Source: an uncultured Acidobacteriota bacterium
Lineage (GTDB): Bacteria; Acidobacteriota; Vicinamibacteria; Vicinamibacterales; UBA2999
Assembly (NCBI GenBank): GCA_963772955.1
Contig: CAVYZF010000003.1
Location: forward strand, 364,799 to 428,798
Direction: 5' to 3'
Length of the DNA stretch: 64,000 nucleotides
In this document: positions 24,502 through 41,577 of the stretch, piece after piece
Layout of the letters: each line of letters starts with the position of its first letter
Position numbering within the stretch: position 1 is the stretch's first letter
Program-made: the position numbers and the translations under genes
Notes under the pieces: generated by a model
The model's database searches: none
Told to the model about the DNA's origin: nothing
What the model saw: only the letters and a program-made list of their open reading frames with translations

Positions 24502-27084
24502 TTACTTGCCGAGCGCCATCCGCAGTGTGACGCCGACTGTGCGCGGATCGCCCGGCAGGCCGACGATGAGACCCGAGTTGCCCGGCTGCGCCGTCAGGAA
24601 CTCGAAGTACTGCTTGTCGAGCAGATTGCGCGACCAGAGGAACACCGACCAGCCCTGGTTCCACCGGAAGCCCGCACGCAGGTTGACGAGGCCGTACCCG
24701 TCAACCGTCATGTACCGCGAAGCCGACGGGCTCGAGGAGAATTCCGATCGATAGCTGGTGTCAACCGCGCCGAAAAATTCACCAGCCTGACTGAAGACCG
24801 TCGCCGGGTGGTTGTATTCGCCACCGAACGTGAGCGCCCACTTCGAGATACCCGGCAGGACCGAGCCCGAGATGTCCTTGGTCTGGGGACCGCCAGTGTC
24901 CTCGACCGGCGGCGGCGCATCCGGGAACGAGACGTAGATGCCGTCGGTGTAGGCAGCGGCGCCATAGAACGAGAGCCGGCGGTTGATGCGCGCGTTGCCG
25001 TCGAATTCGGCGCCTCGCACCCGCACTTTCTCGGCGTTTGCGAGATAGCCGCGCAGCACGCCGACCTGTGCGTTGACGACCTGCGTCTGATAGTCATCGA
25101 TGCTCGTATTGAACACCGTGACGTTCGCGGTATACCCGGGGCGGAACTCGGTCTTCACTCCGAACTCGACGTGATGTGCGTCCTCCGGCTTGACGGTCGC
25201 CGCCGACAGAACGGGATTGCCGAGCGCGTCGGTGGGCAAGCCATTCAGATTCAAACCGACAGACTTGAACCCGGTCGAGTAGGTGCCATACGTGTTGACG
25301 GCGTTCGAAATCTTGTACGCCACCGTCAGCTGACCTGATGTGTTCGTGTCATCGACGTCCGCGGTGTACGCCTGCGGCGCAAGGACCGAGAGCTTGAGTG
25401 CGATGAGCGCCGGGTTGGTCGTCTCCAGTCCGCCATACACCTGCTGGTCGTAGTCAGCGCTCTTCTGGTCGTAGTTGAAGCGCAGGCCCGGGAGGATGCG
25501 CAGGCGATCGGTGACGAGCCACTCGAGTTGACCGAAGGCTGCTGCGCTGGTGTTCCGGAATGTCAGGTACTGGTTGTAGCCGTAGCCGTCGAGCAGGCCC
25601 GGTGTTGCCGCCGCCGCGCTCGGCGCGAGCAGGAAGCGCGCGGCCGCCGATCCCTGCTCCTGCTTGAACGACGGATTGGAATCGAGCGCCTGGTGGAACG
25701 CGAAGATGCCGGTCACCAGGTTGAAGCGCGACGACAGCGGGCCGGCGTAGCGCACCTCCTGCGTCCACTGGTTCTGTTTCGATGGCGCTGCAGAGATCGA
25801 TGTGACCGGCAGGCCGATGAAGTCGCGGTCGTTGGACGGATCCCAATTCCAGTACCGATACGCCGTCGTCGAGGTCACGCGACCTCGTCCAACATTCCAA
25901 TCGACGTTTGCCGAGGCACCGCCGAGATCCTGGTTGGACTGCCAGCTCGTGTCCGTGTCGGTGAGTCGATCGAAGGCGTTGTAGCTCGGGGGCGTGTACC
26001 CGAGGTCGGCTGTGATCGCCTCCCACTGACGGTTCGCAGGTCGCAGCGTCGGCGCCACACCTGCGACAACCTGCGCATAGCCCTCGGGCCGCTGACGCGT
26101 GTGATCCACCGACACGTTGACGGCAACTGATTTCGACGGCGTCACGAGCAGCTGACCTCGGAACCCCAGATTGTTCAGCGTGTTCGTCTCTGCCTGCGTC
26201 TTCGTGTTGTAGATGAAGCCCTCGCGCCCCGTGCCGGAGAACGAAACACGTCCAGCGACCTTGCTGCTCAACGGACCGGCCAGCGACGCCTTGGCCTGGA
26301 CGAAGTCGTAGCTGCCATACGCGAGCTCGACGTTCGACTCCCGCGAGAACGTCGGCCGGCGACTGGTGACGTTGATCGCCCCCGCCGTCGTGTTCTTGCC
26401 GAAGAGCGTCCCCTGCGGTCCGCGCAGCACTTCGACTTGCGCCACGTCGAGGAAGTCGAGCGTTGCAGACGCGGGGCGCGCGTAGAACACGCCATCGATG
26501 TACATCCCGACCCCCGGCTCGATGCCGTCATTGGTCAGACCGAACGGTGACCCGATGCCGCGAATGGTGACCGCGGAGTTGCGCGGGTTGGACGAGTAGA
26601 ACTGGACGGTGGGAATGAGCTCCTTGACGCGATTCACGTTGAACGCACCGGCGCTGGCGACGAGCTCGCCAGTCAGTACCGACACCGGAATCGGAACTTC
26701 CTGAACCGCCTCTTCGACGCGACGAGCCGTCACAACCACGCCTTCCGTCAGTCGAGCCGGCGTCAGCGTCACGTCAATCTTCGCCGCCTGGCGTCCGTCG
26801 AGTGCGCCGCGAACAACTGCGGCTTCGAACCCATCGAGGTTCGCTTCCACACGATACTGACCGGGTGCCAGGTCACTGACCTGATAGCTGCCCTCGGCGT
26901 CGCTCACGGCTTCCTTCGCGGCGCCGCTCGCCTCGTTAATCACTCGAATCGTCACGCCCGGAATAGCGCCACCACTCGAGTCGCGAACAACGCCGTTGAC
27001 GGTACCGGCGGTCTGGGCCAGCGCTGCCGTCGGCATCAACCCGGCGAGCAGGACGGCGGCGAACATCAACACTCTGCGTAACAT
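24502..27084 (-). CDS. TonB-dependent receptor with CarboxypepD_reg-like N-terminal domain
   Basis: Signal MLRRVLMFAAVLLAGLMPTAALAQ. TAGTVNGVVRDSSGGAIPGVTIRVINEASG...YQVSDLAPGQYRV is the carboxypeptidase-regulatory fold. This is followed by a plug (VVVTARRVEEAVQEVPIPVSVL) and a long beta-barrel. Confidence 0.9.
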   Translation of the reverse strand: MLRRVLMFAAVLLAGLMPTAALAQTAGTVNGVVRDSSGGAIPGVTIRVINEASGAAKEAVSDAEGSYQVSDLAPGQYRVEANLDGFEAAVVRGALDGRQAAKIDVTLTPARLTEGVVVTARRVEEAVQEVPIPVSVLTGELVASAGAFNVNRVKELIPTVQFYSSNPRNSAVTIRGIGSPFGLTNDGIEPGVGMYIDGVFYARPASATLDFLDVAQVEVLRGPQGTLFGKNTTAGAINVTSRRPTFSRESNVELAYGSYDFVQAKASLAGPLSSKVAGRVSFSGTGREGFIYNTKTQAETNTLNNLGFRGQLLVTPSKSVAVNVSVDHTRQRPEGYAQVVAGVAPTLRPANRQWEAITADLGYTPPSYNAFDRLTDTDTSWQSNQDLGGASANVDWNVGRGRVTSTTAYRYWNWDPSNDRDFIGLPVTSISAAPSKQNQWTQEVRYAGPLSSRFNLVTGIFAFHQALDSNPSFKQEQGSAAARFLLAPSAAAATPGLLDGYGYNQYLTFRNTSAAAFGQLEWLVTDRLRILPGLRFNYDQKSADYDQQVYGGLETTNPALIALKLSVLAPQAYTADVDDTNTSGQLTVAYKISNAVNTYGTYSTGFKSVGLNLNGLPTDALGNPVLSAATVKPEDAHHVEFGVKTEFRPGYTANVTVFNTSIDDYQTQVVNAQVGVLRGYLANAEKVRVRGAEFDGNARINRRLSFYGAAAYTDGIYVSFPDAPPPVEDTGGPQTKDISGSVLPGISKWALTFGGEYNHPATVFSQAGEFFGAVDTSYRSEFSSSPSASRYMTVDGYGLVNLRAGFRWNQGWSVFLWSRNLLDKQYFEFLTAQPGNSGLIVGLPGDPRTVGVTLRMALGK

Positions 27085-27140: not shown

Positions 27141-27374
27141 AACCATCTGGTTGAAGGTGAACTGAGTCAGCCGAACGACCGGGGTCTGGAAGGTGGGAGC
27201 GGAACGAACCGAAAGAACTAGCTCACCACCTGGTGGTCGTCGGCGTCATACATGCGCACCGACACAACGTGGGGCAACAGAGACATCGATGGGCGAGAAG
27301 AGACATTCGCCGGACTAGAGGCAAGACCTGGACCGTAAACGATTTGGGAGGGAATTTGACTTCCCAGACCCAGA

Positions 27375-31114: not shown

Positions 31115-33804
31115 ATGCCAGACTGTCCACGGTGCGGAGCGGAACTGACCTCCGGCGATCCCGAGGGACTCTGCCCGACGTGTCTGATTCAGGGCGCACT
31201 CGGGAGCTCCGGTAGCGACGAGCTCGGGACCGAGGTGCCTCGCCCTGCCCCAGGTGCAGCCCTGGATGACGACTTCGGCCGCTATCGCATTATCAAGTCC
31301 CTGGGCGAGGGCGGGATGGGTACGGTGTCTCTCGCCGAGCAGCGTGAACCCATTCGCCGGCGCGTGGCGCTCAAAGTCGTGAAGCTCGGCATGGACACCG
31401 CAGCGGTGCTCGCCCGCTTCGCCAACGAACGCCAGGCGCTCGCGATGATGGACCACCCGAACATCGCCCAGATCTTCGACGCCGGCGCGACCAGCAAAGG
31501 GCGCCCGTACTTCGTGATGGAGTACATCGAAGGGGCGGTCATCACCCAGTTTTGCGATCGCAAGCGGATGCCGACGAGGGATCGGCTCGCCTTGTTCCTC
31601 GCGGTGTGCGATGCGATCCACCACGCGCACCGGAAGGGTGTGATCCACCGCGACGTGAAGCCGTCGAACGTGCTGGTGATGGAACGGGACCGCACGCCGA
31701 TTCCCAAAGTCATCGACTTCGGAATAGCAAAGGCCACCGACAAGTGGGCTGTGGAGAAGAGCGCGCTCACCCACTTCGGCCAGATCGTGGGGACGCCGGA
31801 GTACGCCAGCCCGGAGCAGGTGGACACGATGCAGGGAGACGTCGATGAGAGCTCCGACGTCTATTCGCTCGGCGTGCTCTTGTTCGAGATGCTGATCGGC
31901 GCCGTGCCGTTCGACCCCGCGACGTTGCGCAGCGCCGGTCTGGCCGAAATGCTGCGGATCATTCGCGAAGATGAGGCCCCTTCGCTCTCCCGAAAGCTCA
32001 CCTCGTTGGGCGCCGCGGTGACGCACATTGCCGAGCGTCGGCAGACCGACCCGGTCTCGTTGCGCCGTCTCGTGGACGGCGACCTGAACTCGATCACGAT
32101 GAAGGCCCTGGAGAAGGCGCGCGAGCGGCGCTACGCGTCGGTCGCTGACCTCGCAGCCGATATCCGGAATTACCTGGAGCACCGGCCTGTGCTGGCCGCG
32201 CCGCCGGGCCGGCTGTACCGAACTCGGAAGTTTCTCCGCAGGCACCGGGCTGCCGCTGTCGGCACAGCCGCCGGACTCGCACTCCTCGTGTCGATCGGGG
32301 TGACGGCATGGTCGCTCTCCTCTCGCGTGTCGCCGATGAGACCCACGCTGACCGAGAAGGACACCATCGTGCTGGTGGACGTCACGAACCAGACCGGCGA
32401 TCCGGTCTTCGACGGCGCGCTCCGTCAAGGGTTGTCGTTCGAGCTCGCACAATCGCCATTCGCAGTGATATCGGACACCAAGGTTCAAGAGACCCTGGCG
32501 CTGATGGGCCAGCCGAGAGACGCGAGAGTGACTCCGGAGATCGCGCAGCGATCTCGATCGAACAGCGTGCGGCGACTCTGGAGGGGTCGATTACCAGACT
32601 TGGCAGCCAATACGTGCTGGGCTTGCGCGCCAGGAACTGCACGACGGGCCGCATCCTCGATCAACAGCAGATCCAGGTGGCTCGGCAAGAGGACATTCTC
32701 AACGCCCTGAGTCAGATCGCGCGAAGATTCAGAACCCGGGCAGGCGAATCGCTGCTCACAGTTGAAAAGCACGCGCCCTTGCCCGAAACCACGACATCAT
32801 CCACGACGCCTTGAGGCGTCCGCCGGAGACGGCCGTCCCTTCGGAAGTCGCGGTGAATCGCTTTCATCGCCGCGCCGTCGAACTCGATCCCGGGTTCGCG
32901 ATGGCGCACGCCCGGCTGGGACTGAACTCCCTCGGGGAATCAGAGCTGGCGGCCGAGAGCACCAGAAGAGCGTGGCTCCTGCGAGATCGCGTCAGCGATC
33001 GCGAAAGGTTCTTCATCGACTTTATCTACGACCGTCAAGTCACGGGAAATCTCGAAAAGGCCTATCAGACGCTCGAATTGTGGTTCAGACGTATCCCCGC
33101 ACGGAACAACCCAATCCCCATAGTCTGCTTGGCGGCATCTCCACCCATGGGACCGGCCGTTACGAGAGGGCGCTCGAAGCATCTCGAAAGGAAATCGCGG
33201 CTGATCCCGACTTTGGGTTGGGGTATGGCAATCTCGCGGGAAGCTATTTCCTCACCGGTCGCTTCGCGGAAGCCGAGAGGACGATTCAGGCGGCTTCCGA
33301 GCGCAAGCTGGAGCTCGACCGTCTTGTCGTCATCCGATACAACCTCGCGGTGCTGACGGGTGACCAGGAGCAGATGGCCCGGTCAGTCGCGCTGGCCCGG
33401 GGCAAGCGCAGCGTGGAACACCGGATCGCGCACGCGCAGTCCCTCGCGCTGGCTCGTACCGGCCGTTTGGAGGCCGCCAGGCTGTCGTCCAACCGCGCCT
33501 GGAGGCGCGGGAGGGAGCGAACCCTCGCATGGCGGTTTTGCAGACCACCGCGTTGCCGCTTCGCCACCGCGCCGAATCTGGTTAGGGTTGAAGCTAACTT
33601 CCAACATTACGGCGGCGGTCGCACGGGTGCGCGGCGAGGTGATGGTGCGCGACGGTGGCGATCGTTCTGTCGGGAGAGAGGACCAAGGCCAAGGCTGCCT
33701 ATGAGACATTCCTGGCCTTGTGGAAGGATGCTGACGCCGATATCCCGGTCCTGAAGCGCGCCAAAGCTGAATACGCGCGGCTGCAGCCGGCACATCAGCG
33801 ATGA
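31115..33804 (+). pseudogene. Ser/Thr protein kinase with TPR-like C-terminal region, heavily decayed
   Basis: The Zn-ribbon (MPDCPRCGAELTSGDPEGLCPTCL), kinase domain (GEGGMGTV, HRDVKPSNVLV, DFGIAKA, GTPEYASPEQ) and TM segment are intact to about 32520. The remainder must be read through at least 5 frame changes: ATLEGSITRLGSQYVLGLRARNCTTGRILD..., then AVELDPGFAMAHARLG...YDRQVTGNLEKAYQTLELW, then QTYPRTEQ...GTGRYERALEASRKEIAADPDF..., then ...TKAKAAYETFLALWKDADADIPVLKRAKAEYARLQPAHQR* with stop at 33802-33804. The region 33490-33650 looks internally deleted. Confidence 0.75.
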
Positions 33805-33867
33805 GCGCAGTGTAACCATTGACTTCCAATTCCTTATGCCTGTTGTGGAGCGGCACAGGTTGAGCTC

Positions 33868-34130
33868 ATGACCGGCGATCCCGGAAACACCGCAGGCGGA
33901 ACGATGCACACGCTGGCGGGGGGATCAGCTTTCCCGACCACATGGTGGACGATGGTGATCGCCCGCCGTTCCCCCGGCCGTGGCTCGCTCCGCTCGGTGT
34001 CGCGCTGCGAGCTGGTCGCTTACGCTACGTTCGCCGCCGCGGGTATCCGGCTGACCAAGCGCAGGATCTCACGCAGGAGTTCTTCATCCGCGTGATGGAA
34101 GGCCGATATCTCGATCGCGCAACCGAAGGT
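33868..34130 (+). pseudogene. ECF-type sigma-70 factor remnant (region 2 only, frameshifted and 3'-truncated)
   Basis: SAFPTTWWTMVIA is in one frame and RYVRRRGYPADQAQDLTQEFFIRVMEGRYLDRA is in another. Both are typical of the N-terminal third of kinase-associated ECF sigma factors. Nothing sigma-like follows after about 34130. Confidence 0.55.
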
Positions 34131-34520
34131 CCCGCCCGCTGCGATTTTCACGAGCGCTCCCCCCTCCGCTTCGTAGTCCTGAGCGCCGGCAGCACTAGCC
34201 ACCTTGAAGCCGTTCTTCTGCAAGAGTTCCGCCGCTCGCACCGAGCGCGTCGAGTGATTCGAGACGGTGACGATCACGCGCTCTCGTGGAATCGATGGCA
34301 GTCGCGTCTCGAGATCGCCGATCTGCACATTCAGGTAGACGGGGAATCCGCCAATCGAACCGATCTCGTCTGGACGGCGCACGTCGATCACGAGAACATC
34401 CGCCGGCCTCGCGAGAAGCGCGTCAACCTCCGCGCGCGTGAGCACATTGACCGGCTGTTGCGCCTGGATCGCAACGGAAACAGACAGGAGCAGAACTATC
34501 GAGAGCAGTGTCCGAAACAT
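34020..34520 (-). CDS. Secreted rhodanese-domain sulfurtransferase (with aberrant 3' extension)
   Basis: Start MFRTLLSIVLLLSVSVAIQAQ (ATG 34520). The rhodanese core is LVIDVRRPDEIGSIGGFPVYLNVQIGDLETRLPSIPRERVIVTVSNHSTRSVRAAELLQKNGFKV. The last ~39 codons are antisense to the sigma-factor remnant. Confidence 0.78.
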   Translation of the reverse strand: MFRTLLSIVLLLSVSVAIQAQQPVNVLTRAEVDALLARPADVLVIDVRRPDEIGSIGGFPVYLNVQIGDLETRLPSIPRERVIVTVSNHSTRSVRAAELLQKNGFKVASAAGAQDYEAEGGALVKIAAGGTFGCAIEISAFHHADEELLREILRLVSRIPAAANVA

Positions 34521-34540
34521 GTGGATTCCTTCGCCGTACA

Positions 34541-34576
34541 AAGAAAAAGGCCCGGAAGCGTGAACCTCCGGGCCTT
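34541..34576 (-). terminator. Intrinsic terminator 20 nt upstream of the rhodanese ATG
   Basis: The minus strand reads GGCCCGGA-ggttcacgct-TCCGGGCC followed by TTTTTCTTT. Confidence 0.7.
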
Positions 34577-34609
34577 CGATCGGTGGCCGAGCCTGAATGA
34601 GATCAGGAG

Positions 34610-34714
34610 CTAAGGGCTTGAGATGAGGCCCTCCACCGCGCGCGTGTCGCCGGAGACACTTCTGCTGCTGCAACAACAACAGCAACAAGAGAGACGCGGG
34701 GCCGTGGGCATCAT
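34610..34714 (-). CDS. Polycysteine leader peptide (sORF, 34 aa; 36 aa if started at 34720)
   Basis: The minus strand reads ATG(34720) CCA ATG(34714) ATG CCC ACG GCC CCG CGT CTC TCT TGT TGC TGT TGT TGT TGC AGC AGC AGA ... CCT TAG, giving (MP)MMPTAPRLSCCCCCCSSRSVSGDTRAVEGLISSP*. The six consecutive Cys codons are at 34687-34670. Confidence 0.6.
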   Translation of the reverse strand: MMPTAPRLSCCCCCCSSRSVSGDTRAVEGLISSP

Positions 34715-34723
34715 TGGCATCAC

Positions 34724-34753
34724 TTTGTAGCGCACTGAACGAATCGTCGTCAA
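34724..34753 (-). promoter_or_regulatory. Sigma-70-like promoter for the polyCys leader and rhodanese
   Basis: The minus strand reads TTGACG (34753-34748), 18 nt, TACAAA (34729-34724). ATG 34714 lies 9 nt after the -10, which is leaderless-type geometry. Confidence 0.4.
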
Positions 34754-34770
34754 AGAAAGTTGACTTCCGA

Positions 34771-37170
34771 CTAGTCGGCCCTGAGCGCGACGATCGGATC
34801 CACGCGAAGCGCACGGCGTGCAGGCAGGTACACGGCAAGCACAACGACAGCGACAAGAAACAGCGTGGCGAGCATCAGGGCCGCGGGGTCGGTGGGCGTG
34901 ACACCATGGAGCAATCCGGCGAGCGTTCTGGCGAAGGCCATTGAGGCGGCGAGGCCAATCGCCACGCCACCGGCGGCAAGCAGAACAGTGCGGCGCATGA
35001 CGAGCCAGAGCACGGCGCCAGGTTGCGCACCGATGGCCACTCGCAAAGCGATCTCACTCGTGCGGCGCGCCACCCAGAACGCCACCACTCCGTACAGTCC
35101 CATTCCCGCGAGGAGCAGCGCGACCCCGGCGAAGCCGCCAAGCAGCTGCATTGCGAATCGTGGGCGTGACAAGTCGTCGGCAACGAAATCGGCAAGAGCG
35201 CGGACATCTGCAACCGGCTGATTGGGATCCAGCCGCCGGATCACACCGCTGACGATAGGCGCGACAGACGCGGCATCACCCGTCGACCGAACCGCCAACG
35301 CGAAATCACGCGTCGTCACCTGCGGAAACCACCAATAGGCGCTTGGCGGCGCATCCGCGGCCAGCCCGCCAAATCGGACACTGCCAACGATGCCGACGAC
35401 CCTTCCAGTCAGCGTCTCGTTGTTCCCGCGGTGCCACGTGAGATGCGCACCCACCGCATCTCCGCCGGGCCAGTAGCGGCGGGCCAGCAATTCGTCGATC
35501 ACGAACACCGGCTCACTCCGCTCGGTATCGTCGCGCCCCGGCAACCGGCCGCTGACGAGCGGGATCCCCATCGCCTCGAAGTACCGTCCGCCGACGATGC
35601 TGACCCACGAGAATTTCTGATCTTCGACGTGCGTCTCAGCACGCCCGTCTATCTCGAAGCGATTCGCCGCGCCGCCGCGGCTCATGGGCAGATAGTTGGC
35701 GAACCCGGCACGCGACACTTGCGGTTCGTTCTCGAGCAGACGCACGAGTTCCGCACCAAAGACTCGAATCTGCTCTTCGCGCGGATACGCGCCCTCGGAG
35801 AGTGCGGTCTTCATGGTGAGGACACGATCCGCATCGAAGCCGGGCGCGATGTGCGTCAGCTGCTGAACCGTGCGCGTCAGAAGGCCTGTGCCCGCGAGAA
35901 GCATGAGAGCAAACGCGACCTCGGCAACGATGATTGCGTTGGTGATTCTCGGGTGACGTTGACCCACGACGCCGCGCGTTGCACCTGGCGACGCGCCGCC
36001 GATTGCCATTCGCGATACTGAGACGATCCACATCGCCAACGCCGCGACAACTGTGACGACGAATGCGAAGCCAAGCGTCCGCAGGTTGACAATGATCTCC
36101 GTCGTTCGCGGGAGGTTCATGCCGGGAGAAATCAGCCCCTGAATGGCGTCTGTCCCCCACCAGGCCAACAGCATCCCCGCAGTCCCGCCGAGACTCGCGA
36201 GGGCGACACTCTCGAAAAACAGTTGCCGCACCAGGCGACCGTGGCTCGCGCCCAGCGACCAGCGAACGGCGAACTCTCCCTGCCGTGCCACACTGCGGCT
36301 GATCGCCAGATTGGCCACGTTCGCACACGCGATGAACAGCAGGAGCATCACCGCACCGAAGAGCGCAAGCAGCAACGGACGCGCGTCGCGCACTGTTGCT
36401 TCCAGAAGCGGAAGCGTCTGGATGCGCCAATCGTGGCTATAGGACGGAAACTGATCCTCGACACGTGCGGCGATCGCCGACAGGTCTGCTTGCGCCTGCT
36501 CGAGTGTGGCCCCCGATGCCAGGCGCCCGACAACGTGGAGATCGCCTCCCATCCCTACGAGTTCGCTCGGATCGAGGCGGAGAGGTTGCCACAACTCCGC
36601 GCGCGATTCGGCAAACTCGGTCGTGCGGATCGTAAAGGCCTGCGGCATGACGCCGACGATGGTCCGCGTCGCGCCATCGAGGACGATTGATTGGCCCACG
36701 ACATTCGGATCGCCTCCGAACCGCCGTTGCCACAAGCCATAGCTGAGGGCAACTTCGGGCGCGATCCGGCTCAGATCGCGTTCGGTCGTAAATGTGCGGC
36801 CGACGAGTGGAGGCGTTCCGAGCACGGCGAAGAAATTCGTGGTCGCATGGTCCGCAACAACCTGAACAGGCTCGCCGCGACCGGTCAGCGTCGCTCTGGC
36901 TTCGTGCCATCCCACCAGATCCGCAAACGTGCCGCTCTGGCGACGCCACTGATCCAGGTAGCCCCGCGACAGACGTGCGCCGGACGTCGGACGCAGCATG
37001 ACGAGCCGCTCCGGCTCCGGGAAACGCAGCGGGCGAAGCAGCACGGAATCGACGATGGCGAACATCGCAGTGCTCGCCCCGATGCCGAGTGCGAGCGTGG
37101 CAAGGGCCGCTAGAGCAAACGCAGGAGCGCGCCTGAGCAGACGTAGCGCGTAGCTGACGTCCTGTTTCAT
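34771..37170 (-). CDS. ADOP-family (MacB-like, duplicated FtsX) permease
   Basis: Start MKQDVSYALRLLRRAPAFALAALATLALGIGASTAMFAIVDSVLLRPLRFPEPERLVML (ATG 37170, ATGA overlap with the upstream stop). Duplicated MacB_PCD/FtsX architecture. Confidence 0.9.
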   Translation of the reverse strand: MKQDVSYALRLLRRAPAFALAALATLALGIGASTAMFAIVDSVLLRPLRFPEPERLVMLRPTSGARLSRGYLDQWRRQSGTFADLVGWHEARATLTGRGEPVQVVADHATTNFFAVLGTPPLVGRTFTTERDLSRIAPEVALSYGLWQRRFGGDPNVVGQSIVLDGATRTIVGVMPQAFTIRTTEFAESRAELWQPLRLDPSELVGMGGDLHVVGRLASGATLEQAQADLSAIAARVEDQFPSYSHDWRIQTLPLLEATVRDARPLLLALFGAVMLLLFIACANVANLAISRSVARQGEFAVRWSLGASHGRLVRQLFFESVALASLGGTAGMLLAWWGTDAIQGLISPGMNLPRTTEIIVNLRTLGFAFVVTVVAALAMWIVSVSRMAIGGASPGATRGVVGQRHPRITNAIIVAEVAFALMLLAGTGLLTRTVQQLTHIAPGFDADRVLTMKTALSEGAYPREEQIRVFGAELVRLLENEPQVSRAGFANYLPMSRGGAANRFEIDGRAETHVEDQKFSWVSIVGGRYFEAMGIPLVSGRLPGRDDTERSEPVFVIDELLARRYWPGGDAVGAHLTWHRGNNETLTGRVVGIVGSVRFGGLAADAPPSAYWWFPQVTTRDFALAVRSTGDAASVAPIVSGVIRRLDPNQPVADVRALADFVADDLSRPRFAMQLLGGFAGVALLLAGMGLYGVVAFWVARRTSEIALRVAIGAQPGAVLWLVMRRTVLLAAGGVAIGLAASMAFARTLAGLLHGVTPTDPAALMLATLFLVAVVVLAVYLPARRALRVDPIVALRAD

Positions 37171-37997
37171 TTGCGCGGGAGCGGCGGCGGCAACGGCGCG
37201 GGATCGATGTAGCCACGGGTGCCGTCGGGCCTGATCGGACCCGGTCCGAAACCGAGATGTGCCGCATCGACGTTGTTCTCGCTGCAGGCGTACTCCATGA
37301 TTTCTTCGTCGGGCTTCCCGAGTACCCACGTGCGCGAGTAGGTGAACGGACGCGTGTAGAACTTCGGATCCTCGATCAGCGTGTCGACGTGAATGTGGTC
37401 GGCATCAGGGCGCGTCCATCGCTCGACGACGTGCAATGCGTCACTGTGAGGGTTGGCGTTTTCGTCGATCCAGACCTTTTCGTCCTTGAAGCCGATCGAG
37501 TCGATGACGAGCGTGTCGCCTTCCCACTTGCCAAGCTCTTCCCCGAAGAAGGACGGATCGGGATCGTCCGAGTGCTTGCGGTTCGGATCGATCGGGATCA
37601 AACGGAAGTAGCTGTACCAATACAGAAACGCGATCTTGTTGTTGCCTTGCAGGACCTCGAACGGAAGACCACTGGCGTTGTGGCGCGGGATTCCACCGAT
37701 GATGCAGAGGCTCTCGGGATCGATCGTCGCCGTGAGATTGTGCTTGAGGGCGGCCTCTCCGGCCGGCGTCAGCGGCAGCTTCCACCCGGGTAGGTCCTTG
37801 CCGATGTTGCCGCCAGGCTTCGTATCGGTGGTGCCCTTCCAATAGCCGCTGAAGTCTGGCTTGCCGTTTGCCATTCGCGGCGTTGGTCGGTTCGACTTGA
37901 AGTCCGGCACCTGCATCTGCGCACGGGTCGCGATAGCAGAGAGCGCGAGCGCGAACAAAACAATTGCCGGTATGAGGCCCGCCCTCATCGCTGTCAT
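37167..37997 (-). CDS. Secreted hypothetical protein (family also at 51832..52812 and 52830..53633)
   Basis: Signal MTAMRAGLIPAIVLFALALSAIATRAQ. Shared pattern with the two later ORFs: G.W...., P.N/T..A, C....G.P, then G.W.G.TLV, then DP..Y..P. ATGA overlap with the DUF6152-like gene. Confidence 0.65.
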   Translation of the reverse strand: MTAMRAGLIPAIVLFALALSAIATRAQMQVPDFKSNRPTPRMANGKPDFSGYWKGTTDTKPGGNIGKDLPGWKLPLTPAGEAALKHNLTATIDPESLCIIGGIPRHNASGLPFEVLQGNNKIAFLYWYSYFRLIPIDPNRKHSDDPDPSFFGEELGKWEGDTLVIDSIGFKDEKVWIDENANPHSDALHVVERWTRPDADHIHVDTLIEDPKFYTRPFTYSRTWVLGKPDEEIMEYACSENNVDAAHLGFGPGPIRPDGTRGYIDPAPLPPPLPRK

Positions 37998-38392
37998 TGC
38001 GGCCCTCCGTCTCCGGCCGAGGCGCCCGAGACGATACGGCCGTCCGCGAGCGTCACACGACGGGCATCCATCAGGTTCGACCCGTTCTTCGCGCGATACC
38101 CGTCCACCACGATCGTGTCGCCGAGTTTGAGATCACCGCGCTTGAACCCGCGCCGGCTCAGCGCCCCGGGGGCACCCGACTCACAGGTCCACTTCACCGC
38201 GTTTCCCTGCTCGTCCTTCGCATCCAGGTAGAAGTAGATATGCGGATTGGTCCACTCCACCTTGGACAGCGTCCCGGTGACGCGAATCGCTTTGCTGGCA
38301 TCGAACTCCGCCGCAAACGAATGGTGTGCGAGCAGTTGAGCGCCACTTGCCGTGGCGACCGCCACAACGAGGAGCAACAGAATCTTCTTCAT
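37994..38392 (-). CDS. DUF6152-like small periplasmic protein
   Basis: MKKILLLLVVAVATASGAQLLAHHSFAAEFDASKAIRVTGTLSKVEWTNPHIYFYLDAKDEQGNAVKWTCESGAPGALSRRGFKRGDLKLGDTIVVDGYRAKNGS. The signal, AHHSF start and OB-like pattern fit this family as I recall it. Confidence 0.65.
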   Translation of the reverse strand: MKKILLLLVVAVATASGAQLLAHHSFAAEFDASKAIRVTGTLSKVEWTNPHIYFYLDAKDEQGNAVKWTCESGAPGALSRRGFKRGDLKLGDTIVVDGYRAKNGSNLMDARRVTLADGRIVSGASAGDGGPQ

Positions 38393-38462: not shown

Positions 38463-38534
38463 ATGTCCGCCCGAATCTGTCGCCTTTGCGTTTGCTGCTG
38501 TTGTAGCAGGACCTGTAATGGGTCCCCGAGGTGA
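38463..38534 (+). CDS. Polycysteine leader peptide (sORF, 23 aa)
   Basis: ATG TCC GCC CGA ATC TGT CGC CTT TGC GTT TGC TGC TGT TGT AGC AGG ACC TGT AAT GGG TCC CCG AGG TGA gives MSARICRLCVCCCCSRTCNGSPR*. It has 7 Cys, four of them consecutive (38493-38504). Confidence 0.65.
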   Translation: MSARICRLCVCCCCSRTCNGSPR

Positions 38535-38588
38535 CGATCCGGCAATTGGGTGAATAGCAGAACAACCCAGAAACACGCTACGCGATCG

Positions 38589-38620
38589 AAGCCCGGGGAA
38601 ACGAACCCGGGCTTTTTTAT
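38589..38620 (+). terminator. Intrinsic terminator 17 nt upstream of the cysD ATG
   Basis: aaGCCCGGG-gaaacgaa-CCCGGGCtt followed by a T6 run (38613-38618). Confidence 0.8.
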
Positions 38621-38636: not shown

Positions 38637-39575
38637 ATGTCGACAGTGACCCTGACCCCTAGCTCGACCGTCGCCTCCCGCCTCGACCATCTGCGGGCAC
38701 TCGAGGCGGAGAGCATTCACATCTTCCGCGAGGTCGTCGCCGAGTTCGAACGGCCGGTGATGCTCTACTCCATCGGCAAGGACTCGTCGGTCCTGCTGCG
38801 GCTTGCGCAGAAGGCGTTCTACCCGGGTCCGATTCCCTTTCCCCTGCTTCACGTCGATACCACCTACAAGTTCCGCGAAATGATCGAGTTCCGTGACGAG
38901 ATGGCCCGTTCTGTCGGCGCCCGGCTGATCGTCCACACGAACGAGGAAGCGATCGCGGACGGCACGCAGCCCTTCAAGGTCGGCACGCAGCGCTGCTGCG
39001 GCCTGCTCAAGACGAAGTCGCTGCTCGATGCGCTCCAGGCCGGGAACTTCGACGCGGCCATCGGCGGCGCCCGCCGCGACGAGGAGCGCTCGCGCGCCAA
39101 AGAGCGCATCTTCTCCGTGCGCGATCCGAATGGACAGTGGGACCCGAAGCGTCAGCGTCCCGAGCTCTGGACGCTGCTCAACGCGAAGCTGCGGCCCGGC
39201 GAGAGCATCCGGGTGTTCCCGCTCTCGAACTGGACGGAAATCGACGTGTGGAACTACATCCACGCCGAGAACATCCCGATCGTGCCGCTCTACTTCGCAA
39301 GGGAGCGCGAGGTGATCGTCCGTGGCGCCTCGCTCATCGTCCAGGAACAACCGTTCGTCGTGACGATGCCCGGAGAGAAGCCGCAGGTGGTCAAGTGCCG
39401 CATGCGCTCGCTCGGTTGCTCACCATGCACGGGCGCCATCAAGTCCGACGCAGATACGGTGCCCAAGATCATCGAAGAGCTGATCGCGACGCGCCAGTCC
39501 GAACGTCAGCTGCGCATCATCGATCACGACCAGGACGGCTCGATGGAGTTGAAGAAGCGGGAAGGCTACTTCTGA
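38637..39575 (+). CDS. cysD: Sulfate adenylyltransferase subunit 2
   Basis: Start [61 protein letters not shown] (ATG 38637). PAPS-reductase-like fold, ending ...[10 protein letters not shown]. Confidence 0.95.
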
Positions 39576-40908
39576 TGCCGGAACTGGGAACCCGGACCAT
39601 GGAATCCAGCCTCCTGAGAATCTGCACGGCCGGCAGCGTGGACGATGGAAAGAGCACGCTGATTGGGCGGTTACTCCACGATTCGCAGTCGGTCTACGAA
39701 GACCAGGTGGCGTCGGTCGCCAAGGCGTCGAAGAATCGCAACGCCGGGCCCATCGACTTCTCGCTGTTCACCGACGGCCTGCGCGCCGAGCGCGAACAGG
39801 GCATCACGATCGACGTCGCGTATCGCTACTTCGCCACCGCGCGCCGCAAGTTCATCCTCGCGGACACACCCGGTCACGAGCAGTACACGCGGAACATGGC
39901 AACGGGCGCATCAACCGCCGACGTCGCCATTCTGCTCATCGACGCGCGCAACGGCGTCCGGACGCAGTCGAAGCGGCATGCACGCATCGCACGCCTGCTC
40001 GGCATCACCAACTTCGTGCTCGCCATCAACAAGATGGACCTCGTCGACTTCGATCGCGAGGTCTACGAGAAGATCCTGGACGACTTCAGCGAGTTCCTCA
40101 CCGGCGCCGCGGTACATGCGATTCCGATGAGCGCGCTCGAGGGCGACAACGTCATCACGCGCAGCGAGCGCACGCCGTACTTCGACGGCCCCCCGCTGCT
40201 CGAGTTCCTCGAGACCGTGCAGGTCCATCGCAACCTGCCGGCGGCGCCGTTCCGCTTCCCGGTGCAGATGGTGCTTCGTCCCGACCACGAGTTCCGCGGA
40301 TACGCGGGGCAGATCGTGTCGGGCAGCGTCAGAACCGGCGATCGCATCACCGCCTGGCCCTCCGGCCGCAGCGCTCGCGTCAAGCGCATCGTCACCTACG
40401 ACGGCGACCTGGCTATGGGCTTCGCGCCGATGTCGGTGACGCTGACGCTGGACGACGAGATCGACATCAGTCGCGGCGACGTGCTGACGGTGGAACCGGC
40501 GTTCGTCGGACAGAAATTCGAGGCGGAGCTGGTGTGGATGGACGAGCGGCCGCTGGATCCGGGTCGCGTGTACCTGCTGAAGCACGGCACGCGCACCGTG
40601 ACGGCCGAAGTCAATCACGCGCTCGTGCTGAATCAGATCGGCAACGTCCAGATCTCGACGGCACGACCGCTCGTGTTCGATCGCTACGCTGAGAATCGCG
40701 CCACCGGCAGCTTCATCCTGATCGATCCGGCCACGCAGTTCACCTGCGGCGCGGGGATGATCACCGATCCGCTTGCGTGCGAGCCGTCGAAGTGCAGGGG
40801 GCGCCGCTCACGTTCGCTCAGCGCCTGGCGCACATCGCACGGCGGGCGGCGTCGGATGAAGAGGCCGCCGAGGCCGTGCGCAAGGCGCTCGAGGAGATGC
40901 TCACATGA
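39575..40908 (+). pseudogene. cysN: Sulfate adenylyltransferase subunit 1 (GTPase), apparent -1 nt frameshift in a G5 run near 40797-40801
   Basis: The ATG overlaps the cysD stop (TGATG). G-domain motifs GSVDDGKST, DTPGHEQY and NKMD are present, and the sequence is intact through ...TCGAGMITDPL. The original frame then runs Arg-rich with no stop until 41326. The neighbouring frame reads ...GAPLTFAQRLAHIARRAASDEEAAEAVRKALEEMLT* and stops at 40906-40908, overlapping the cysH ATG. Confidence 0.85.
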
Positions 40909-41577
40909 CCCGGGATTCGGGACTCGGGGTTCGAGATTCGAACCTCGTGAATCAAGCGAGACACACGGTCGAAGACGCGTTGGCCAGCGCCCAGACGCCC
41001 TGCATCACGTCGAGCTTTCAGGCCGAGTGCGTGGTGCTCACGCACATGCTGCGCGAGGTTCGTCCCGACATCCCGGTGCTGTTCCTCGATACGTTCCATC
41101 ACTTCGAGCAGACGCTGACCTATCGCGACGAGCTCAGTGCGCGCTGGGGATTGAATCTGATCAACCTTGCGCGCGCAGACGCCGAGCGTCGGGTTGTGGC
41201 AGGCCGAGAGCACTGAGGCGTGCTGCAAGCGTCACAAGGTGGAGCCGCTGTTCGCTGCACTCGAAGGCTACGACACCTGGTTCACGGCGCTGCGGCGCGA
41301 TCAGTCGCCGTCACGCGCGAACCTGAAGGAAGTGGAGCCGTTCAATCTCCCGGGGCGGACCATCTCACGCGTCGCGCCGATTGCTGGCTGGACGGCGCGC
41401 GACGTGTGGGCGTACGCGAAGGCGCACGACATTCCGCTGCTGCCGCTCTACGAACTGGGCTACACGAGCATCGGCTGCGAGCCGTGCACGGCACTGCCCT
41501 TCGATCCGGAAAACCCGCGCTCGGGCCGCTGGCAGGGCCAGAAGCTCGAATGCGGGATTCACATCCAGGCGAAGTAA
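40905..41577 (+). pseudogene. cysH: Adenylyl-sulfate (APS/PAPS) reductase, apparent +1 nt frameshift near 41166-41169
   Basis: The 40905 frame (...PVLFLDTFHHFEQTLTYRDELSARWGLNLINL) stops at 41216. The sequence continues in the 41167 frame (RAQTPSVGLWQAESTEACCKRHKVEPL...YTSIGCEPCT...KLECGIHIQAK*). The CC...CXXC cysteines suggest an Fe-S APS-reductase type. Confidence 0.85.
40909..40945. repeat. Tandem 7-nt repeat (GGGATTC-type, reverse orientation of the 6276 repeat) at the cysH 5' end
   Basis: Reads cc cgggatt cgggact cggggtt cgagatt cgaacc and encodes TRDSGLGVRDSNL. Confidence 0.7.

Follow-up and report, generated by a model that had tools for sequence, protein, structure and literature searches.

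A conserved polycysteine leader with an intrinsic terminator, a candidate cysteine attenuator of sulfur-linked genes in Acidobacteriota

Leader-peptide attenuation is a textbook mechanism, and Acidobacteriota are a dominant, poorly understood soil phylum. For cysteine (Cys), the closest described systems, and in the searchable literature the sole class studied by experiment, are the polycysteine leaderless short open reading frames (sORFs) of mycobacteria (Ms5788A, 'Cys ribulon'), which were found experimentally to be cysteine-responsive attenuators (Canestrari et al. 2020, 10.1101/834739, Mol Microbiol 114:93) and in which the stalled ribosome opens a duplex that masks the ribosome-binding site belonging to the next gene, with no intrinsic terminator (10.1101/834739). 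In Actinobacteria, comparative genomics predicted Cys leader peptides upstream of cys and cbs operons, with the Cys run near the stop codon and no conserved terminator hairpin, for which Rho dependence was proposed (Seliverstov et al. 2005, PMC1262725). Predicted attenuators of Acidobacteriota had no assigned function (PMC2965389), and in the searchable literature we found neither a terminator-type Cys leader nor any Cys leader in Acidobacteria. Here we analysed a stretch of 64,000 nucleotides (nt) from an uncultured Acidobacteriota bacterium (GCA_963772955.1, contig CAVYZF010000003.1, positions 364,799 to 428,798), hereafter the window, with a focus on a minus-strand element that we call leader 2, in which a sORF with six consecutive Cys codons is followed by a terminator hairpin directly upstream of a protein-coding gene. 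From its anatomy, its conservation, its association with sulfur genes and the non-random occurrence of its Cys runs, we infer, with a probability of roughly 0.7, that leader 2 is a ribosome-mediated, Cys-tRNA-sensing transcription attenuator; that the sORF is translated, that ribosomes stall on it, what acts as the antiterminator and how the leader responds to cysteine are all deduced from sequence.

Leader 2 shares with the mycobacterial sORFs a short reading frame with consecutive Cys codons, a start near the predicted 5' end of the transcript without a Shine-Dalgarno (SD) sequence, the presence of several independent copies per genome before cysteine or sulfur operons, and the ribosome as the proposed sensor of Cys-tRNA. 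Unlike the mycobacterial elements, every leader described here (leader 2, its sister leader before cysD, and a leader in the close relative L085) carries a strong hairpin followed by a U tract; the host belongs to Acidobacteriota, not Actinobacteria, and among the putative targets are a TonB-receptor operon and the gene for tRNA-Cys. No SD duplex that depends on ribosome position was found in leader 2, where the sole predicted SD pairing is with the U tract. Since it fails the translational, terminator-less feature of the mycobacterial class, we file leader 2 as a variant of leader-peptide attenuation and not in that class, and an informal comparison, in which no sequence similarity between the mycobacterial elements and these leaders was apparent, suggests an independent origin.

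The likeness is closer to the trpL, hisL, leuL, thrL, ilvL and pheL leaders of Proteobacteria, which combine a sORF with regulatory codons, 1:2, 2:3 and 3:4 helices and a terminator before the first gene. In that type of leader, 'region 2' begins ~10-15 nt after the regulatory codons, and the same geometry is seen here. Unlike the trpL type, the leaders of this study would sense cysteine, their sORF has no SD sequence and is apparently leaderless, and the genes controlled would be those of uptake and scavenging together with a tRNA, not only those of biosynthesis; in leader 2, moreover, the region-1/region-2 logic is less clear. With the actinobacterial leaders, the elements have in common short Cys-run reading frames upstream of sulfate-assimilation or cysteine genes (PMC1262725), and that type is a better match for the architecture of four other loci described below (L013, L018, L050 and L068) than for the leader of the window. 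The S-box (S-adenosylmethionine) riboswitches and T-box leaders of Firmicutes are also cis-acting 5' leaders that set a terminator against an antiterminator before sulfur operons, but their sensor is a metabolite- or tRNA-binding RNA fold, whereas here it would be a translated reading frame. A search of Rfam returned no family for either leader of the window, at the gathering threshold or at E ≤ 1.

The promoter-like element, sORF, Cys run, terminator and downstream ATG that a preliminary description of this locus had listed on the minus strand were all recovered at their positions when the window sequence was checked. Upstream lies a promoter-proximal element, GGAAGTCAA-N6-TTGACG (34748..34768), in which GTCAA and TTGAC form an inverted repeat across the -35-like hexamer TTGACG (34753-34748); an 18-nt spacer separates the latter from the -10-like hexamer TACAAA (34724..34729), which stands 9 nt 5' of the conserved ATG, with no SD sequence between. 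Three in-frame ATG codons are present, at 34720, 34714 and 34711. The first two had been put forward as starts, of which ATG 34714 is conserved, whereas ATG 34720 is TTG in two orthologs. From ATG 34714 to the stop codon TAG (34612-34610), the sORF (34610..34714) has 34 codons and encodes MMPTAPRLSCCCCCCSSRSVSGDTRAVEGLISSP, and its six Cys codons TGT TGC TGT TGT TGT TGC (34670..34687) form the proposed sensing site. The candidate antiterminator strand, or region 2, GUCUCCGG (34650..34657), starts 12 nt past the Cys run; the segment complementary to it, CCGGAGGU, is in the 5' arm of the intrinsic terminator (34537..34577), which consists of a hairpin (34577-34546; 14 pairs, 8 of them G-C, and a loop of 4) and the T tract TTTTTCTTT. 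Further downstream, AGGAAT (34530-34525) contains the SD sequence AGGA (34530-34527) of the reading frame that starts at ATG 34520. When the region from 33.8 to 39.0 kb was scanned for terminators, four sites were returned, and the two that are long and G+C-rich are the hairpins of leader 2 and of the cysD leader. Leader 2 as a whole folds more stably than shuffled sequences (z = -3.95), and its terminator hairpin is present in every equilibrium fold.

Leader 2 was found in nine loci of Vicinamibacterales-like Acidobacteriota, between p276 (or a gene for an ADOP-type permease) and a TonB-dependent receptor gene. Close orthologs have a mean column identity of 88%, vs 80% amino-acid identity for the neighbouring ADOP protein. 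In L092-L095, the gap of ~230-310 nt before the receptor holds an ortholog with an identical terminator, organised as GAAGTCAA-N6-TTGACG, 18 nt, TACAAG and a sORF that begins M(K/T)PTAPRLCCCCCCRCN, while in L087 the ADOP gene is inserted as in the window and the same leader is followed by an intact receptor gene. In 7 close orthologs, the hexamer is kept as TACAA(A/G), at a distance of 8-9 nt from the start codon. The leader is also present at the loci of more distant homologs of the receptor (66-73% identity), in L096, L097 and L098; that of L097 starts with GTG in place of the conserved ATG, and that of L096 reads CRVCCCC and has a perfectly paired stem. The number of consecutive Cys codons is 5-6 in the close orthologs, 4 in L096 and 2 in L098. 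Close orthologs show no change in the terminator; in L096 and L098 the changes in its stem are compensated, the stem of L098 being altered on both sides (GGCCCGGAAGGG/CCCTTCCGGGCC), and hairpin and U tract are retained in all nine loci as well as in the cysD and L085 leaders.

The pattern of change within the sORF bears on its reading frame. The run of six Cys codons is kept through three substitutions (CCCCCCRC in relatives, SCCCCCCS in the window), an in-frame deletion of 3 nt in L092 removes exactly one codon, and the codons of the segment PTAPRL vary synonymously at third positions, while the stop position varies by ~12 nt among orthologs. The conserved start, the in-frame indel and the synonymous third positions suggest that the Cys frame is read. 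In leader 2 and the cysD leader alike, the conserved start codon lies 8-9 nt past the -10-like hexamer and has no SD sequence before it, which would imply an mRNA that is leaderless or nearly so. Relatives without an upstream ADOP gene keep the leader intact, which indicates that its hairpin is not simply the terminator of the ADOP operon, an explanation that the preliminary description had named as fatal to its proposal. As for that gene, the ADOP-type MacB/FtsX permease gene upstream of leader 2 in the window (34771-37329, minus strand) is an insertion between p276 and the leader, located exactly 5' of the GAAGTCAA element; the insertion is common to the window and L087, and absent from L092-L095 and L097.

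Cys-codon runs of this length are rare. The window contains one run of at least six, against an expected 1e-4, and two of at least four, against an expected 0.1, both of which belong to the two leaders; the run of leader 2 is the sole one of at least five, and the remaining three-codon runs are off-frame noise within genes. When comparison loci of 81 other genomes, 1.2 Mb in all, were searched on both strands, runs of at least four Cys codons yielded only two further leader-like sORFs. The earlier argument that chance is an unlikely source of two such leaders is upheld by the confinement of these runs to leaders in the window and in the comparison DNA, and no polycysteine sORFs were found scattered at random through the 1.2 Mb. 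A leader of this kind is no general companion of the rhodanese-like gene that follows leader 2: across 80 species loci, 10 carry at least three Cys codons in a run within 600 nt upstream of it, and the 12 runs in those upstream regions are about twice the background (~5.7 expected). The idea that the leader belongs to the rhodanese-like gene as such was rejected, since only these 10 loci carry a Cys run upstream. A pattern scan of metagenomes recovered orthologs of the cysD leader and gave no leader-2 ortholog directly; 3 of its 10 matches were coding-sequence noise. Separately, short CCC reading frames (MRCCCSNS, …ACCCSNKNN…, …SCCCELCC) occur 270-400 nt 5' of the rhodanese-like gene in Cellvibrio-type gammaproteobacterial loci (L048:~207, L057:~3599, L080:~2564), and may be further Cys leaders or chance.

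In the mechanism that we propose for leader 2, transcription would start ~8-9 nt before the ATG of the sORF, from GAAGTCAA-N6-TTGACG, 18 nt, TACAAA, and the sORF would be translated from a leaderless or nearly leaderless mRNA. With plentiful cysteine, the ribosome would pass the six Cys codons and reach the stop codon, and the 14-base-pair (bp) hairpin with its U tract would halt the polymerase before the first gene. When Cys-tRNA is scarce, the ribosome would stall in the Cys run and keep the 5' leader domain from folding, and GUCUCCGG, just past the edge of the stalled ribosome, would be freed to form a duplex with the terminator's 5' arm, letting the polymerase read through. The operon targeted in relatives would encode a set of sulfur-poor proteins (TonB-dependent receptor, p311, DUF6152, p246 and a Cys-free rhodanese-like periplasmic protein) and, at its end, tRNA-Cys, while in the window a deletion has put the leader directly before a chimeric gene.

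Equilibrium folding with ribosome masks cannot discriminate between the states of this model, since the terminator forms in all of them; for this reason, the stalled states were folded from transcripts truncated before the 3' arm of the terminator, with the ribosome footprint masked. Under these conditions, GUCUCCGG is predicted to pair with CCGGAGGU in five of six orthologs for a ribosome stalled on the second Cys codon and in every one of the six for a ribosome stalled on the fifth, and the terminator arm is free when the ribosome is placed at the stop codon. Across three lineages of divergent sequence, the segment with the longest complementarity to the arm begins 10-15 nt past the Cys run, immediately beyond where a stalled ribosome would end, and complement and arm change together (GUCUCCGG/CCGGAGGU, CCUCUGG/CCGGAGG and CCCUUCC/GGAAGGG).

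Several observations weigh against an attenuator of this form. The preliminary description had noted two 6-mers of the sORF that are complementary to the terminator arm; both are present, but alone they are no better than shuffled sequence, and these 6-mers and the arm-only duplex energy, which for leader 2 does not exceed that of dinucleotide shuffles (p = 0.5), were dropped as proof of an antiterminator. With an extended arm, the duplex is marginal (p = 0.07). The positional test gives p = 0.05-0.2 per lineage and a combined p≈0.03, with a 32-nt search window that was chosen post hoc. Little covariation is seen, the close orthologs being too alike to inform and most pairs staying constant, and covariation on close orthologs was set aside as a test for both leaders, almost all pairs being invariant. 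The strand GUCUCCGG lies 30-40 nt 5' of the stop codon, outside the cover of a terminating ribosome, so that the 'plentiful' state would depend on refolding of the 5' domain behind the ribosome. The Cys run of L098 is short, with CC and one further Cys, and the sORF frames of L095 and L096 are disrupted, which is probably a matter of long-read assembly error, on the assumption that the fragmentation of neighbouring genes has the same source. Finally, TACAAA has no canonical final T and is rejected by a strict sigma-70 scan, which accepts the promoter of neither leader 2 nor the cysD leader. We regard the specific GUCUCCGG:CCGGAGGU antiterminator as a tentative assignment, whose chances of being correct fall somewhat short of even.

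The sister element, the cysD leader or leader 1 (38463..38615, plus strand), precedes cysD, cysN and a gene for PAPS reductase, and comprises a sORF that encodes MSARICRLCVCCCCSRTCNGSPR (38463-38534) and a terminator (38588-38615), with the ATG of cysD at 38637. It was found in twelve loci, in which the Cys codons alternate synonymously between TGC and TGT, and the 3' part of the sORF shifts its frame and stop position while the nucleotide sequence stays the same; this indicates selection on the Cys codons and on the RNA, not on the peptide tail. In the consensus fold, a 15-bp 1:2 helix, in which the 5' part of the sORF pairs with its 3' end, encloses the Cys run. When a ribosome is stalled in the Cys run, the strand that this releases, UCCCC-N-GGUGACGAUC, is predicted to pair with GAUCGAAGCCCGGGG in 12/12 orthologs, and this antiterminator duplex has an energy of -24.6 kcal/mol, vs -14.9±2.7 in shuffles (p = 0.0015). 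Taken together, the nine leader-2 loci and the twelve leader-1 loci lend comparative support to the original proposal of a polycysteine leader peptide coupled to an attenuator terminator.

The parallel between the two leaders, which the preliminary description had drawn in detail, is borne out at the level of design, but an alignment gives ~46% identical columns with local matches, an identity at which common ancestry is neither shown nor excluded, and homology of the two leaders was not retained. A 9-mer that the same description had pointed out 5' of both terminators, CGATCGAAG, does stand directly 5' of the stem of leader 2 (34574..34582) and again in the cysD leader (38583-38591), but it is a common word of this genome (10 copies in the window vs 2 expected) and, although most leader-2 orthologs keep it, is CAATCGCAG in L087; of the 10 copies, the two in the leaders are the only ones before hairpins. 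It was dropped as a special shared signal, though it has a structural role in leader 1, all 12 orthologs of which include it in their predicted 2:3 antiterminator helix. In the genes behind leader 1, the PAPS reductase (cysH-like) of the window (40905-41577) is split over two overlapping frames, 40905-41216 and 41167-41577 (plus strand), and the cysN frame (39137-41326, plus strand) runs far past the end of its domain; a frameshift or an error in the window sequence may explain this.

The gene downstream of leader 2 in the window had been read as a rhodanese gene and as the target of the leader, which did not hold: it is a deletion chimera without the catalytic Cys, and the native target is a TonB-receptor operon. 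Of this reading frame (34020..34520, minus strand), nt 1-69 correspond to the signal peptide of a TonB receptor, nt 73-380 to a rhodanese-like gene and the last ~120 nt to unrelated sequence. By blastn against L093-L095, nt 1-69 align with the start of the receptor gene (its first 69 nt) and nt 73-380 with the rhodanese-like gene, the two pieces lying 5.4 kb apart, and the breakpoints are near 34452-34448 and at ~34140, the second of which swaps the C-terminus for the unrelated sequence. As judged from these matches, a 5.4-kb in-frame deletion fused the receptor signal peptide to the rhodanese-like domain in this genome. An independent metagenomic protein, P0001, which is the closest homolog, is 95% identical and has the same fused N-terminus and an upstream gap of 250 nt, so the chimera is not an assembly artefact.

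The domain itself is, by its sequence, rhodanese-like and not a classical sulfurtransferase. Its Pfam Rhodanese (PF00581) score is borderline (22.4 bits vs a cut-off of 22.2), the catalytic-Cys site (C-X5-R) is replaced in the family by an invariant V-S-N-H-x-x-R-x-x-R-A-A loop, and 117 of 120 homologs have no Cys at all. The family is large (869 matches) and consists of secreted proteins of ~150 amino acids with the S-N-H-x-x-R loop, many of which are named 'rhodanese-related sulfurtransferase' by the Joint Genome Institute; it possibly binds anions or sulfur compounds. In L092-L095, cysH, cysN and cysD lie behind leader 1, with DUF6152 and p276 in the divergent direction and then the gap that holds leader 2, followed by the native operon, which contains the genes for a TonB-dependent receptor (~1050 amino acids), p311, a second DUF6152 protein, p246 and the rhodanese-like protein; TauE and a sigma-54 activator lie beyond it. 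Since relatives carry the leader before an intact receptor gene, whereas the gene in the window is a deletion chimera, the native role of leader 2 would be control of the receptor operon. NCBIfam naming of the operon proteins gave nothing useful.

The sole tRNA gene of the window is a tRNA-Cys (GCA) gene, identified with ARAGORN and Rfam, at 33500..33573 on the minus strand, ~450 nt downstream of the chimeric gene and on the same strand. In five relatives, tRNA-Cys stands 8-31 nt after the stop codon of the rhodanese-like gene (L094:12845-12919, L081:5434-5508, L093:12859-12933, L095:12999-13073 and L001:4362-4436), and in L094 the next reading frame begins 12 nt past it, a spacing so tight that the tRNA gene has no room for a promoter or terminator of its own. 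The simplest reading is that tRNA-Cys is co-transcribed with the putatively Cys-attenuated operon, although the linkage could also stem from conserved synteny among close relatives. It is absent from the loci of the other 79 species, and no report of such an arrangement was found in the literature. In the window, the flanks of tRNA-Cys are rearranged and its T-loop is one nucleotide shorter; a search of a plasmid collection with the rearranged flanking segment gave no match.

The promoter-proximal element and further leaders extend the set of genes that may be controlled together. No leader-2 ortholog, not even the distant L097 or L098, departs from GAAGTCAA-N6-TTGACG, which in L093 makes up a perfect inverted repeat of 7 bp. 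Variants of the GAAGTCAA word stand upstream of candidate leader 3 and of the leader in L085, and the word may serve the gene set as an operator or promoter element. On the minus strand of the window it is seen at 34748-34768, 27355-27364 and 33819-33827, the last of these between the chimeric gene and tRNA-Cys. The fourth leader, in the close relative L085 (2440-2700, minus strand), shows GAAGTCAA-N6-TTGGCG, 17 nt, TTACAA, 9 nt and ATG, and its sORF MVHALACCCRLTSASGHRRAREETDVHRA (MVHALACCCRL…) is followed by a strong terminator and then by a DUF1549/DUF1553 (PSCyt2/PSD1) gene. Candidate leader 3 (27223..27306, minus strand) is a Cys-rich sORF upstream of a second TonB receptor gene (27084-24502) and encodes MSLLAHRCLCCPTLCRCACMTPTTTRW, with 6 Cys in 27 residues, beginning MSLLAHRCLCCPTLCRCAC…; it is conserved in L081 (8220-8590) and L001 (7140-7506), where the stop is kept as TGA or TAA, and is preceded by GGGAAGTCAA and an invariant sigma-54-like GG-N10-GC/TTGC (-24/-12) ~14 nt before the ATG. 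No T-tract terminator was found at candidate leader 3.

A second architecture is seen in the Terriglobia/Bryobacterales-type loci L013, L018, L050 and L068, where a sORF led by an SD sequence has its Cys cluster at the stop codon (L018:456-548, …HRCCCCCFR; L068:500-588, …FRCCCCR; L050:516-632, …IVCCCRCRP; L013:612-698, …ACCRCCR). These leaders directly precede an operon of a TonB receptor followed by a rhodanese-like gene and have no T-tract terminator. A conserved block upstream of the sORF is shared by L013, L018 and L068; a sigma-54 promoter was considered for the block of L018 and L068 and discarded, the spacing from GG to GC being 3 nt too long.

The proteins linked to the leaders are poor in sulfur. 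In the leader-controlled set (window 24502-27084 and 37167-38392; L094:7001-12818), Met makes up 0.43% of residues vs 1.94% in controls, and Cys 0.32% vs 0.60% (Fisher p = 1.6e-9), a depletion of ~4.5-fold for Met and ~2-fold for Cys relative to other window proteins, while secreted control proteins have normal Met content. Sulfur-amino-acid depletion is a hallmark of sulfur-starvation-induced proteins. The neighbourhood of the leaders includes cysDN, PAPS reductase, TauE and tRNA-Cys, and the leader-2 operon, the proteins of which are poor in Met and Cys, adjoins TauE and ends in tRNA-Cys. The small cysteine-attenuation regulon that had been suggested from the two leaders is supported by their conservation and strengthened by the shared GAAGTCAA-N6-TTGACG element, the fourth leader and the Met/Cys depletion.

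Other explanations of leader 2 have to be weighed against transcription attenuation. One is that the polycysteine sORF does sense cysteine while the output is translation initiation, as in Ms5788A, or Rho-dependent polarity, the hairpin being a structural or stability element. In the sole experimentally dissected polycysteine sORF, it is indeed a sequestered ribosome-binding site that the stalled ribosome frees (10.1101/834739), other polycysteine sORFs of Acidobacteriota precede the same operon without a T-tract terminator, and the support for the leader-2 antiterminator is marginal. A consensus fold that pairs the U tract with the AGGA SD region (columns 248-255 with 297-304) points the same way, but this pairing is independent of ribosome position and the SD sequence of the relatives lies ~60 nt beyond the hairpin; as the hairpin is moreover a textbook intrinsic terminator, kept with its U tract and with compensated changes throughout the nine loci and likewise in the leaders of cysD and L085, we consider a translational or Rho-dependent output unlikely. 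Control might instead act mainly at initiation, through a protein bound to the GTCAA-N6-TTGAC inverted repeat over the -35 region, with the Cys run and hairpin adding little. The invariance of GAAGTCAA-N6-TTGACG, its recurrence ahead of both leader 3 and the leader of L085, and the presence of a sigma-54 activator gene in the neighbourhood would fit such a protein, which would, however, leave unexplained the conserved Cys runs, the terminators and their absence elsewhere, and the cysD leader has the same design of sORF and terminator without the GAAGTCAA element. Both layers can coexist, so that control at initiation is more an addition than an alternative, and as the main mode of regulation it seems very improbable.

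The sORF could also encode a functional Cys-rich peptide, e.g. a metal-binding or redox one, with the hairpin as its own terminator and the downstream operon separately promoted. The non-Cys parts PTAPRL and VSGDTRAVEG are conserved, the ~60 nt between terminator and receptor start in relatives could hold a promoter, and an independent role of the peptide was left open by the authors of the mycobacterial study (10.1101/834739). Yet the C-terminus and stop vary, and in leader 1 the 3' part shifts frame with the RNA kept, which indicates a constraint at the RNA level; the peptides of the four leaders are unrelated and have in common only Cys runs, terminator and promoter design, and all leaders sit directly before sulfur-linked or sulfur-poor genes. 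A peptide function as the explanation of the locus is thus quite unlikely in our judgement. Lastly, the Cys run might be a chance repeat, (TTG/CTG)n followed by (CAG)n, beside a terminator that merely ends the ADOP or p276 transcript. In another frame the run does read as the repeat-like LLLLLLQQQ, followed by AGCAGCAG, and the hairpin lies downstream of the end of a convergently oriented gene; however, the whole 250-nt unit is kept in nine loci, with or without ADOP, its start codon and frame are preserved, the length of the run is held by compensating substitutions, and such runs are absent from the 1.2 Mb of control sequence, so that a chance repeat is effectively refuted.

Beyond transcription attenuation by leader 2, a broader proposal can be formulated, which we find doubtful as a whole: tRNA-Cys would be an output of the Cys-codon attenuator, such that stalling leads to read-through of a sulfur-poor uptake operon that ends in tRNA-Cys(GCA) and the tRNA supply is fed back from its own codons. 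This loop would belong to a 'Cys ribulon' that spans several operons (cysDN-PAPS reductase, that of the receptor, the DUF1549/1553 gene and possibly the second receptor), of an origin independent of the mycobacterial one and with a shared promoter or operator and terminator-type attenuation.

If the attenuator reading of leader 2 is true, these leaders would be the first terminator-type cysteine attenuators and the first leader-peptide attenuators described in Acidobacteriota. Their regulation alone would mark a sulfur-scavenging set, made up of the TonB receptor, DUF6152, the p276/p311 family, the rhodanese-like protein, TauE and DUF1549/1553. With tRNA-Cys inside the regulated operon, a feedback that links the decoding of codons to the supply of their tRNA would become directly testable.

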